61,409 bases of DNA, taken from positions 1 through 61,409 of the forward strand of contig PEXU01000049.1 in assembly GCA_002774635.1 (NCBI GenBank), written 5' to 3'. Below are positions 2,020-4,262 of the stretch, piece by piece. Below the pieces are notes generated by a model, which searched no databases, was not told the origin of the DNA, and was given only the letters and a program-made list of their open reading frames with translations. Source of the DNA: Candidatus Kerfeldbacteria bacterium CG08_land_8_20_14_0_20_40_16. GTDB lineage: Bacteria > Patescibacteriota > Patescibacteriia > UM-FILTER-42-10. A program made the translations under genes and the position numbers. Position 1 is the first letter of the stretch. Each line of letters begins with the position of its first letter.

Positions 2020-2330
2020 GTTATTGGTGCACTATGAGGAACGGGATAGCGATTTCCGCGTCTCTCCCCTCGGCTTCGCTCGGGGTCCTTGTCCTGGGCA
2101 GCCTGCCCGACATGCCGTCATGGCAGGCGGGCGCCAAATGCTCCTTATGGTCGCATTCGTCGGCGTTCGTCTGCATCCCGCTTTCGCGGGATTTGTCTCG
2201 CTTCTGCCCGTTCGAATCCCTCTCTGGAATCTTAAAAGCGGTAAACAAAAATATCCTGGTTTCCCAGAATATCTTTGTCGTGGTATGTTTATTTGACCAA
2301 ATCCGAACCTATTTTGTCCGTCTGCCGTAG
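2020..2330. other. GC-rich hairpin-dense block, unassigned (candidate structured RNA or decayed tRNA-derived DNA)
   Basis: Hand count 38/60 G+C for 2101-2160, against AT-rich flanks. Several stable hairpins: cctgcccg...caggcggg 2102-2131 and atcccgctttcgcgggat 2175-2192. The 13-mer GTTCGAATCCCTC at 2208-2220 is identical to the T-arm of the tRNA-Lys at 4186-4262. The three overlapping ORFs there look like artefacts. Confidence 0.4.
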
Positions 2331-2381
2331 CTTTAGCGAAGGCAGGAAAGAAATTTTTAATTCTTTTGTTTTTTTAAATGG

Positions 2382-2420
2382 GCGGGGCGGAAGGGGGGTC
2401 TGGGGGGAATTCCGCCCCGC
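2382..2420. repeat. perfect 11-bp GC hairpin
   Basis: gcggggcggaa (2382-2392) pairs with ttccgccccgc (2410-2420). The loop is 17 nt and G-rich. Confidence 0.85.
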
Positions 2421-2470
2421 AAAGAATCAGAAATTTTCCTGAAAATAAGTTCGGGCTTTTAGGAGAAGGC

Positions 2471-2557
2471 CGTACCAATCAGAAGTGGGCGATTTTTCCG
2501 CCAAAATTTGGCGCGAATTTTCCAGTAAAATCAGAGCTTTACCCGACTTAATGAGGC
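2471..2557. repeat. left copy of 87-bp inverted repeat flanking the serine recombinase gene
   Basis: Reverse complement of 4106-4192. One mismatch in the first 54 nt and 7 in the last 33 by my alignment. Begins with CGTACCA, which is the 3' end of tRNA-Lys. Confidence 0.85.
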
Positions 2558-2594
2558 AAATATAAAAAAGATACATTAAGAGCCAATCTTTTTA

Positions 2595-2636
2595 GGATAA
2601 TTTTTCTCAATAATTGATAGGTTGAGAAAATTATCC
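2595..2636. promoter_or_regulatory. dyad-symmetric site upstream of recombinase gene (candidate operator or att-like site)
   Basis: ggataatttttctcaa (2595-2610) and ttgagaaaattatcc (2622-2636) are inverted repeats separated by 11 nt, about 95 bp upstream of the ATG at 2731. Confidence 0.4.
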
Positions 2637-2730
2637 GCTTCAAAATTTCCTTAGCAAAAAAAGCGATAATTCCTTTTTGCCTGTTCGTCTACGAAAGGCC
2701 AAAAGCGATTTACTATTAACACTAAAACCT

Positions 2731-4227
2731 ATGAACAAATTCTTTATCTATACCAGAAAATCAACTGATGATGAAGACCGGCAAGTTTTAAGCATTGAAG
2801 CACAAATTGCCGAACTTAGGGAGTTTGCCAAAAAAGAGAGTTTGGAAATAATTGACGAACTGATTGAATCCAAAACAGCTAAATATCCAGGCAGACCGAT
2901 ATTCAATGAAATGCTTTTAAAAATTGAAAATGGTGAGGCTGATGGAATAATTTCATGGAATCCTGATCGTTTGGCCAGAAACGCGGTTGACGGTGGTCAA
3001 ATTATAAACCTGGTCGATAAAGGCAAGTTGAAATCATTAAAATTCCCTACTTACTGGTTTGAACCGTCAAGCCAGGGTTTATTTATGCTGCAAATCGCTT
3101 TTGGCCAGGCTAAATATTACATTGATAATTTAAGCGAAAACGTAAAGAGAGGTATCAGGCAAAAATTAAGACGAGGTGAATGGCCTGGCATGGCGCCACT
3201 TGGTTATCTTAATGATTTAAAAACCCGTACCATTATAGTTGATAAAGAAAAAGCCCTAATTGTTGTTAAACTGTTCAAAGCCTACGCAAGTGGCAAATAT
3301 AGTTTTGAGGGTCTTTCTAAACTGGCTTTTTCTTGGAGTATAAAAACTAGAAAAACTAAAAAGGAATTATCGCTTTCGTTTATTCAAAGAATGCTGCAGA
3401 ATAAATTTTATCTTGGATTATTCTTACACAAAGGCGAAATCTATGAAGGCAAGCACGAGCCACTGATAGACAAAGCCACTTTTGACGCGGTTAAAAGAAT
3501 TATGAGCCAAAGAGGCAAACCAAGGAAAATTAAGACGCTATTAAATTTTCCATTCAGAGGTTTATTTACCTGCGGCGAGTGTGGCAGAACTATAACTGCT
3601 GAAAAACACACTAAAAAATCCGGACTGGTTTTTAAATATTATCGCTGTACCAAAAAGAACACCAATTGTTCGCAAAAATATCTTTCGGAAAATAATCTGG
3701 TAAAACAGGTGGATAAGATAATATCAAAAGTGGCTTTGTCTGATGATTGGTCTACTAAAATGCTTAAGCAAGTGAAAAAGTGGGAACGAGAGAAAGACCA
3801 ATCATCTGCCCTTGCGCTTAAAGGTTTAAATGAAGAATTGGAAAAATTAGAAACAAAACTTTCTAAACTGCTTGATGCGCATTTAAATGGCATTCTTGAG
3901 ATACAAGAATATCAAAACAAAAAAGCAGAACTTATGGAAAAGAAAGTCGCTTTAAAACAAAAGATTGCCCATTTGGGCAAGAAGGGCAATCAGTGGCTCG
4001 AACCATTGAAAAACTGGATATATGAAGCAAGTAACGCTAATAAAATACTTTTTGAAGGAAATTTTGAAGCAAAAGCCGAACTTTTAAAAAAGATTGGCTC
4101 GAACCGCCTCATTAAGTCGGACAAAGCCCTTATTTATTTGGAAAATTCGCGCCAAATTTTGGCGGAAAAATCGCCCACTTCCGATTGGTACGCCGTGAGG
4201 GATTCGAACCCCCGACCATCTGCTTAA
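2731..4227 (+). CDS. large serine recombinase (phage-integrase/transposase type)
   Basis: MNKFFIYTRKSTDDEDRQVLSIEAQ resolvase catalytic N-terminus. Central recombinase domain. Zn-ribbon CGECGR...YYRCTKKNTNC. Coiled-coil C-terminus. ATG at 2731 preferred over the TTG at 2677. The last 35 nt run antisense into tRNA-Lys. Confidence 0.9.
   Translation: MNKFFIYTRKSTDDEDRQVLSIEAQIAELREFAKKESLEIIDELIESKTAKYPGRPIFNEMLLKIENGEADGIISWNPDRLARNAVDGGQIINLVDKGKLKSLKFPTYWFEPSSQGLFMLQIAFGQAKYYIDNLSENVKRGIRQKLRRGEWPGMAPLGYLNDLKTRTIIVDKEKALIVVKLFKAYASGKYSFEGLSKLAFSWSIKTRKTKKELSLSFIQRMLQNKFYLGLFLHKGEIYEGKHEPLIDKATFDAVKRIMSQRGKPRKIKTLLNFPFRGLFTCGECGRTITAEKHTKKSGLVFKYYRCTKKNTNCSQKYLSENNLVKQVDKIISKVALSDDWSTKMLKQVKKWEREKDQSSALALKGLNEELEKLETKLSKLLDAHLNGILEIQEYQNKKAELMEKKVALKQKIAHLGKKGNQWLEPLKNWIYEASNANKILFEGNFEAKAELLKKIGSNRLIKSDKALIYLENSRQILAEKSPTSDWYAVRDSNPRPSA
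4106..4192. repeat. right copy of 87-bp inverted repeat (inside recombinase 3' coding region, overlaps tRNA-Lys 3' end)
   Basis: See the left copy at 2471-2557. Positions 4186-4192 are the CCA-acceptor end of tRNA-Lys. Confidence 0.85.
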
Positions 4228-4262
4228 AAGGCAGTTGCTCTACCTGGCTGAGCTAACGGCGC
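4186..4262 (-). tRNA. tRNA-Lys(UUU)
   Basis: Hand fold: GCGCCGT TA GCTC AGCCAGGTA GAGC A ACTGC CTTTTAA GCAGA TGGTC GGGGG TTCGAAT CCCTC ACGGCGT ACCA. Cloverleaf is intact and CCA is encoded. Confidence 0.9.

Follow-up and report, generated by a model that had tools for sequence, protein, structure and literature searches.

Near one end of contig PEXU01000049.1 of Candidatus Kerfeldbacteria bacterium CG08_land_8_20_14_0_20_40_16, a gene encoding a large serine recombinase (LSR) lies between two inverted repeats and ends antisense within a gene for tRNA-Lys. Our analysis of the whole stretch of 61,409 nucleotides (here called the window) indicates that this gene probably belongs to an integrated element of ~1.9 kb that carries no cargo, holds the core of its attP attachment site inside the 3′ end of its own gene, has a second, mirrored attP built into it, and has repeat arms that recombine with each other. 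The mirrored layout is built into the family to which the element belongs and is no accident of the window locus. This family is very large, occurs in Patescibacteria (the candidate phyla radiation, or CPR) and other uncultivated bacteria, and is apparently undescribed. The architecture was not described in the literature that we searched, but the search was incomplete, so that an earlier description may exist and the novelty is provisional.

The recombinase and its overlap with tRNA-Lys

The LSR open reading frame (ORF; 2731 to 4227, plus strand, from the ORF list and Pfam) starts with ATG and encodes 498 amino acids (aa). Pfam places a Resolvase domain (PF00239) at residues 5 to 151 (E = 4e-21), a Recombinase domain (PF07508) at residues 173 to 261, and a Zn_ribbon_recom domain (PF13408) at residues 274 to 327, as expected from the first-pass annotation of the gene as a large serine recombinase, and finds no phage-integrase (tyrosine recombinase) domain in the protein. 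The YxRxSt catalytic motif reads IYTRKST, and both its serine (S11) and the four cysteines of the zinc ribbon (C281, C284, C306, and C313) are invariant across 41 homologs. The nearest solved relative is the C-terminal domain of the A118 integrase, which matches residues 219 to 397 (E of about 4e-6), and the only coiled-coil-like signal is a weak, below-cutoff match to ZapB at residues 368 to 428. With recombinase and zinc-ribbon domains in 498 aa, the protein is not a small invertase of the Hin/Gin type with a C-terminal helix-turn-helix.

The ORF is uninterrupted, and seven contigs of the species encode an identical protein. The C terminus of the full-length protein reads LIKSDKALIYLENSRQILAEKSPTSDWY. 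The last 42 nt of the ORF, including the stop codon, overlap the 3′ end of tRNA-Lys(ttt) (4186 to 4262, minus strand; ARAGORN and Rfam) in the antisense direction. The gene thus takes its last 11 codons and its stop codon from the antisense strand of tRNA-Lys. The antisense overlap had been recognized before, although its length had been put at 35 nt.

Attachment sites of the window element

A repeat search finds arms of 87 nt (2471 to 2557 and 4106 to 4192) that are 91% complementary and 1548 nt apart, in agreement with the earlier count of about 8 mismatches, and blastn also recovers them (E = 4e-29). Both arms terminate in CGTACCA/TGGTACG. The right arm (plus strand) is the P arm of the attP that was used, which now forms attL with the tRNA and supplies its residues C70 to A76. 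The left arm (minus strand) comprises CGTACCA (tRNA positions 70 to 76) and a copy of the last 27 LSR codons and is the inner, P-type half of an inverted attP-like site.

On the minus strand, the left arm is part of a stump ORF of 49 aa (2427 to 2576) that reads ...LIKSGKALILLENSRQILAEKSPTSDWY... and terminates in ...DWYGLLLKARTYFQENF or ...SPTSDWYGLLLKARTYFQENF before its stop codon, so the resemblance to the LSR C terminus seen in the earlier translation of this arm holds. The stump extends past the 87 nt, with an indel of ~20 nt and then a remnant coding for KKIGS at 2580 to 2596 (minus strand). Both arms had also been described as abutting a tRNA-Lys 3′ end. Both do carry CGTACCA, but the left copy is followed by 30 nt encoding the native tail of the recombinase, and no tRNA is found there; the left CGTACCA is the element's own copy of the tRNA end. 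The native tail in the stump ORF, ...(Y)GLLLKARTYFQENF and then a stop codon, gives this ORF an end of ...KARTYFQENF that resembles the ends of homologs P0030, P0033, P0053, and P0083. Since the outer flank carries the tail of homologs that are not fused to a tRNA, the left site is a full copy of the gene end, the core, and the native tail. Its outer, P′-type half (2427 to 2470, minus strand), which encodes that tail, has the T-loop-like motif AAGTTCGGGC 22 nt from the repeat boundary (family mode, 23 nt).

The spacing of this motif separates two kinds of half-site. In serine integrases, the zinc-ribbon-domain (ZD) motif is shifted by 5 bp between attP and attB half-sites (Rutherford et al. 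2013, PMC3783163). In the family, the commonest distance between the repeat boundary and the G of the GTTCG-like motif is 23 nt for the left outer arm (32 loci) and 18 nt for the T-loop of the tRNA (32 loci), and in the window TCG begins 20 nt ahead of the core in each of the two element arms versus 15 nt in the tRNA arm. The B-type half-site consists of the acceptor 3′ strand and T-arm of tRNA-Lys, with GTTCGAATCC 17 nt from the repeat boundary, and the inner arm (X) carries its own AAAAATCG motif at attP-type spacing. The motif GAAAAnAAGTTCGrAC is found outside the left arm in nearly all loci, and its opposite strand encodes the tail ..K(A/V)RT(Y/F)F... The 5-bp offset of the family half-sites is the one described in PMC3783163, with the ZD motif nearer the core in the attB-type arm. 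It follows that the left site is P|P, i.e., attP-like, and that the right site is P|B, i.e., attL. We also considered the left flank as a degenerate second tRNA and rejected this, because its GTTCG motif lies in the conserved coding tail at attP-type spacing.

The element is joined to tRNA-Lys at about tRNA positions 70 to 73, the right arm (P arm of attP) replacing the last 7 nt of the tRNA and supplying the discriminator base and CCA. On integration, the LSR gene loses its native 14-residue tail and reads on into the antisense strand of the tRNA. The left arm is the inner half of a second, complete, mirror-oriented attP-like site, the outer half of which still codes for the native tail.

The opposite boundary is less well preserved. 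Positions 2242 to 2280 (minus strand), as read from the sequence, would be the displaced original downstream flank of tRNA-Lys (the B′ side). On the minus strand, this flank has a hairpin, GATATTCTGG-GAAA-CCAGGATATT followed by TTTTGTTT, that looks like the former intrinsic terminator of the tRNA gene. With moderate confidence, we assign 2281 to 2325 (plus strand) as a degenerate attR; it consists of TGGTA, then TG, then a frameshifted second copy of the tail (P′), TTTATTTGACCAAATCCGAACCTATTTTG, and has the same arrangement as the near-perfect attR of 12 relatives described below. TGGTA corresponds to the displaced discriminator base and CCA, reverse complemented, and TG corresponds to a mutated core (CG in attL), so that TGGTA(T/C)G is a direct repeat of 4186 to 4192. 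Within the 61 kb, CCGAACYTATTTT is found only at 2303 (plus strand) and 2442 (minus strand). This attR gives the element an extent of about 2281 to 4192, or ~1.9 kb. A 100-nt linker (2326 to 2426) between the two tail copies lies where relatives hold their cargo, so the earlier statement that no cargo genes are present applies to the window copy but not to the family.

A family of elements joined to tRNA genes

A homolog search gave about 4,600 proteins at E ≤ 0.001, a number that probably takes in more distant LSRs, and a scan of GTDB species genomes gave at least 597 loci, 80 of which were analyzed. The named entries among the best 120 homologs come mostly from metagenome-assembled genomes of Patescibacteria. 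Only five relatives are found in IMG/VR, which suggests that the members of this family are not mainly phage integrases.

A convergent tRNA gene overlaps or abuts the gene end in 60 of the 80 loci; two loci (L022 and L069) have a codirectional tRNA upstream, eight have no tRNA, and ten are cut by contig ends, leaving 60 of 70 determinable loci with the convergent arrangement. Eight isotypes are represented among the 60 tRNAs (Ser, 17; Ala, 15; Gln, 11; Pro, 6; Leu, 4; Gly, 3; Asn, 3; Lys, 1), and the closely related elements L055 and L056 occupy different tRNAs. In most loci, the tRNA contains the last 4 to 8 nt of the right arm. Many of the best 120 homologs have W..(R)DSNPR-like ends, which represent antisense CCA and T-arm, while native tails of the ..LLxKxRTYFxxN type are found in a minority (9/120). 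The first-pass annotation had proposed a recombinase family whose gene end is joined to a tRNA-Lys 3′ end and had suggested inspecting whether homologs end antisense in tRNA-Lys genes; these loci bear out the joining to tRNA 3′ ends by integration, with tRNAs of eight isotypes. Database proteins P0001 to P0120 include many with C-terminal extensions of 10 to 60 residues (..DSNPRxxx..) that are antisense tRNA. The repeats break metagenome assemblies at tRNA genes and yield such database recombinases with spurious tails.

The left repeat is likewise a family trait. Its absence from relatives would have counted against the earlier reading, but an inverted repeat of at least 60 nt (60 to 180 nt) is present in 45 of 47 loci with sufficient flank, where it pairs the 3′ end of the gene with a region that precedes the start codon by 50 to 300 bp. 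This bears on the suggestion that the recombinase was inserted twice, head to head, and that the left copy was then almost wholly deleted. The left copy does derive from recombinase coding sequence, as had been recognized when it was called the stump of a second gene, and CGTACCA is found on both sides. However, the same stump recurs throughout the family, in most cases matching the gene end at 100% identity; its outer flank consists of an attP-type arm with a native tail (motif spacing of 23 nt versus 18 nt) and no tRNA; and a native form with two attP copies and without any tRNA exists (L117 and L114). We therefore reject two separate insertions as the explanation of this architecture, and the coding origin of the left copy stands while its status as a separate gene or insertion gives way to that of a built-in, mirrored attP-like site.

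The far ends of the elements were located in relatives. In 12 of them, a copy of the reverse-complemented left outer arm (33 to 37 of 37 positions) is found 1.0 to 3.6 kb farther left, preceded by unrelated sequence. These far-left sites are attR (B′-core-tail) and have only 4 to 9 nt in common with the other sites, comprising the core, the discriminator base, and, in some, CCA. A 13th far-left match, in L037, also includes X; it is a complete attP, located where a second recombinase copy has its 3′ end. The outer repeat, which consists of the tail and a GC-rich, hairpin-rich region, measures 40 to 400 nt. Joining attL with attR predicts a recombinase flanked by two full inverted copies of attP, and a recombinase between two full inverted copies of X-core-tail(-GC-rich region) is what is found in L117, L114, L031, and L038. 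The L117 recombinase is 87.5% identical at the DNA level to that of L118, which is integrated at tRNA-Gly, and the inverted counterpart of the L118 stump and left flank is found downstream of the L117 gene.

Relatives carry 1 to 3.5 kb of variable cargo between the two copies of the outer repeat, often defense genes; examples include XRE regulators, Dam/Dcm methylases and restriction enzymes, a Tad4-like protein, and PD-(D/E)XK and ResIII proteins. The elements do not behave as insertion sequences. The repeats are not termini, since the left repeat is internal, with conserved element sequence and attR beyond it; the targets are restricted to tRNA 3′ ends, and there is no duplication beyond the shared core.

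Structures of this kind could in principle be produced by chimeric assembly or by a collapsed inverted repeat, and many related contigs do break at or near the repeats, many being only 1.5 to 2 kb long. Such breaks are as expected for repeats longer than k, and the same structure is present in 13 contigs from 13 samples, assembled with different assemblers and k values. It is also present in the complete genome CP174360 (L033) and in contigs of 0.2 to 1.8 Mb, which argues against an artifact so strongly that we give this explanation almost no weight. Many family contigs are 1.5- to 2-kb fragments bounded by the repeats; we did not retain contig breaks at the repeats as a sign of inversion, because their positions fit repeats longer than the assembler's k.

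Concerted evolution of the repeat arms

Arms are identical over the outer 80 nt in 37 of 57 loci, and in 51 of 51 comparisons the arms of a locus match each other more closely than they match the nearest other locus. L023 and L060, for instance, share 92.5% identity, while the arms within each are 100% identical. The arms thus evolve in concert, which implies that something recombines them. Mismatches between arms (35 GT, 46 AC, and 135 other) have no G·U bias and show no gradient along the repeat, and together these two features point to copy correction at the DNA level, by gene conversion or flip-flop. Two more specific candidates were rejected on the same data: an RNA panhandle between the copy in the 5′ untranslated region and the gene end, because the G·U bias is missing, and gene conversion initiated at the core, because the gradient is missing.

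A model for the element and its limits

In the model that we favor, the free form would be a circle in which the recombinase cassette lies between two inverted full copies of attP. Either copy could recombine with the tRNA attB, and the unused copy would stay behind as the stump. Recombination between the copies (gene conversion or flip-flop) would keep the arms identical and would occasionally invert the cassette, which would exchange the native recombinase tail for the tRNA-encoded one or vice versa. The model predicts an excised-circle junction of ...CCGATTGGTA[CT]GTTTATTTGACC, an empty-site junction of GTCGTGGTA[CT]GCCGTGAGGGATTCG, and inverted-isomer junctions of CACTTCCGATTGGTACGGCCTTCTCC and CACTTCTGATTGGTACGCCGTGAGGG.

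Several points weigh against this model. Canonical LSRs pair only attP with attB (PMC3783163), so that site-specific inversion of the mirrored attP with attL is not expected, and RecA alone may account for homogenization of the arms. Random use of the two attP copies should give both orientations in roughly equal numbers, but the observed ratio is 60:2; one could speculate that the convergent state is a low-expression trap, the gene lying antisense to a tRNA that is transcribed strongly. The lack of a mismatch gradient from the core leaves conversion that starts from breaks at the core without support. The attR of the window is degenerate, and its assignment, which we hold with moderate confidence, is based on a 13-nt motif and a direct repeat of 5 to 7 nt. 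No excised circle, empty site, or inverted isomer of the window element was found; scans of metagenome contigs for the inverted-isomer junction and for left-flank variants gave no matches and are uninformative, as the JGI contigs L101, L102, and L108, which have the second pattern, were not returned. Finally, L037, L088, L114, and L115, with three or more sites or hybrid tails, are not fully explained by a model with two sites.

These four loci differ in their makeup. L037 (1 to 4700) has two recombinase copies, 90.7% identical, around one cargo segment. In L088 (3400 to 5270), two different tails flank the gene, and a rolling-circle Rep gene and a second recombinase are adjacent. L114 has three sites, and in L115 (7470 to 7660) the ORF continues across the 3′ fragment of a tRNA into a native-type tail. 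L037, L115, and L088 suggest modules that are separated by attP-like sites and possibly exchanged.

The recombinase could instead be an invertase acting on the two repeats as a dedicated switch, comparable to Hin with hixL and hixR, whose selected function would concern expression, protein isoform, the tRNA, or the cargo. Inverted copies of its own site do flank the gene, the family includes both orientations (L022 and L069 versus 60), and the arms evolve in concert; a flipped gene would, moreover, regain its native tail and be codirectional with, and downstream of, the tRNA. Against this stand the single orientation in the 13 contigs of the species, the skewed ratio in the family, the fact that attP and attL are not paired by canonical LSRs (PMC3783163), and the lack of any identified outward promoter or switched gene. 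The clear direct repeats of attR and attL and the variable cargo indicate integration as the primary reaction, and we consider a dedicated switch unlikely.

The mirrored site might also have a regulatory or helper role, as an operator for autoregulation located upstream of the promoter, as a third site whose bound dimer unlocks the coiled coils on attL and attR for factor-free excision, or as the source of the 49-aa peptide. It lies 170 to 260 bp upstream of the start codon in all loci, and minimal elements are too small for a directionality-factor gene, for which the ORF list offers no candidate in the minimal element. Promoter-like hexamers on the minus strand (2586 to 2559) face the stump ORF, which is annotated as a gene in several assemblies. 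However, those promoter matches are at chance level, an operator needs ~50 bp versus an identical repeat of 80 to 180 bp (plus 40 to 400 bp on the other side), and nothing in our analysis supports such a role directly; we rate it as somewhat less probable again than a switch. A bolder reading, in which this clade of LSRs breaks the attP × attB rule and uses the mirrored attP as a working partner for cassette inversion, module shuffling (to which L037, L088, and L114 point), or factor-free excision, strikes us as doubtful, to about the same degree as the switch.

Comparison with known recombination systems

The window LSR shares its resolvase, recombinase, and zinc-ribbon domains with the LSR systems A118/LI, Bxb1, phiC31, TP901-1, TnpX, and CcrAB, and in the window protein a weak coiled-coil signal follows the zinc ribbon; its protein similarity to characterized LSRs is very low. 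As in those systems, the attP arms are quasi-palindromic with the attB-type motif 5 bp nearer the core (PMC3783163), and attL and attR share few nucleotides. Unlike in those systems, the attP core lies inside the recombinase ORF, so that about 14 residues at the C-terminal end of the protein are exchanged on integration; insertion is directed at the final nucleotides of tRNA genes, whose discriminator base and CCA come from the element; a second, complete, mirror-oriented attP is kept inside the integrated element; and the smallest members encode the recombinase alone, without a directionality-factor gene.

Archaeal integrases of the SSV type are tyrosine recombinases that have attP inside the int gene and a tRNA as a target and whose gene is altered by integration. 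The attachment site within the recombinase gene, the tRNA target, and the altered gene are thus shared with the present elements. The enzyme class differs, however; in SSV-type systems the gene is split into two large parts and there is no mirrored second site, whereas here a serine recombinase exchanges its extreme C terminus. In the yeast 2-micron plasmid, FLP and its FRT sites are associated with long inverted repeats whose copies are kept identical. In this plasmid and in the Hin and Gin systems, as here, the recombinase gene occupies a unique segment between inverted repeats that carry its own sites. The present LSR is neither a tyrosine recombinase, as FLP is, nor a small serine invertase dependent on Fis and an enhancer, as Hin and Gin are; in addition, the elements described here integrate into chromosomes and have no replication function in their minimal members, and their inversion is inferred. 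Islands that target tRNA genes (tycheposons and tyrosine-integrase islands) are also similar in integrating at the tRNA 3′ end, restoring the tRNA, and carrying small, variable, and often defensive cargo. They leave direct repeats of tens of nucleotides, versus 4 to 9 nt here, and lack inverted repeats around the recombinase. By its domains and the grammar of its sites, the window element belongs with the LSR integrases and is not a member of the SSV, 2-micron, or Hin systems.

The family is apparently the chief small integrative element in CPR bacteria, whose mobile elements are poorly known, and it often brings restriction-modification and other defense or antidefense genes next to tRNAs. 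For very small serine integrases, its loci supply natural attP/attB pairs by the dozen, with one pair for each tRNA isotype, and these sites are legible directly in the DNA sequence, which makes them useful for genome engineering. The mirrored, homogenized attP is not explained by current models of serine-integrase directionality. If the mirrored site recombines, it would show how a one-gene element manages both integration and excision; if the attP × attB rule is broken, the family would constitute an LSR system that works in both directions on its own and naturally targets the conserved 3′ halves of tRNA genes.

State of the window copy and neighboring features

The first-pass annotation left it open whether the segment between the arms is invertible. 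Within the species, one orientation is present in 13 of 13 contigs from 13 samples, so coexisting orientations of the Hin/Gin kind were not seen in these assembled contigs, although minority isomers may occur. The flipped arrangement is known from two of 70 relatives (L022 and L069). Together, the 91% identity of the arms, the indel in the stump, the degenerate attR, and the single orientation argue for an old insertion, and the window copy is old and probably fixed.

Four loci of a sister Kerfeldbacteria species (L095 to L098) have a syntenic arrangement of MacB, tRNA-Lys, and DUF5667 without the recombinase. An empty tRNA-Lys site in relatives had been suggested as a means of defining attB; the recombinase is indeed lacking in these loci, but the place is taken by an unrelated 240-aa ORF with no Pfam match, located between tRNA-Lys and DUF5667 (L095, 5112 to 5834, and likewise in L096 to L098). 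The presence of this ORF in place of the recombinase suggests that the region downstream of tRNA-Lys is a variable hot spot.

The spacer upstream of the LSR gene (2558 to 2730, plus strand) contains the decayed continuation of the stump and a presumed promoter and is homologous in the closest relatives, L091 to L094. It also has a near-perfect 16-bp hairpin at 2595 to 2636, GGATAATTTTTCTCAA ... TTGAGAAAATTATCC, which may be an operator or a terminator. In the linker there are a hairpin at 2322 to 2345 and a G-rich hairpin at 2382 to 2420, GCGGGGCGGAAGGGGGGTCTGGGGGGAATTCCGCCCCGC, with the conserved loop motif GGAAGGGGGKYKGGGGG. The latter occurs once in the 61-kb window and was therefore rejected as a genome-wide repeat. 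It recurs in L017, L024, L031, L038, L047, L083, L085, and others, in either orientation or as inverted pairs, and its stem differs by compensatory changes between L050 and L083; it might serve as a terminator or a protein-binding site or form a G-quadruplex.

Two same-species contigs from different assemblers, L103 (ending at 2269) and L107 (ending at 2261), both stop inside the terminator-like hairpin of the displaced flank, which could represent strain heterogeneity at the element boundary or coincidence. In L115, two ORFs for LAGLIDADG homing endonucleases (1 to 1142) lie a few kilobases from the recombinase. LAGLIDADG ORFs associated with rRNA genes or introns are common in CPR genomes, and those in L115 are probably of this kind and unrelated to the LSR element.

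To the left of the element, outside the inferred attR, the AT-rich genome has a GC-rich block of ~195 nt (2036 to 2230). It folds somewhat better than shuffled controls, with z = -2.3 on the plus strand and -2.6 on the minus strand. Rfam reports nothing in this block or in the linker at either gathering or E-value thresholds, and the block shows no homology with other elements. Just before it, 2026 to 2033 is the reverse complement of GTGCACCA and resembles a tRNA 3′ end, and within it the 13-mer GTTCGAATCCCTC at 2211 to 2223 (plus strand) equals the T-arm of the adjacent tRNA-Lys. The block may represent a structured RNA that evolves fast or the remains of an older element. Strain variant L005 has almost unchanged flanks, while its block carries about a dozen substitutions and has cleanly lost one hairpin through a 30-nt deletion, and one stem shows an apparently compensatory change, from atCccgc..gcggGat to atTccgc..gcggAat.

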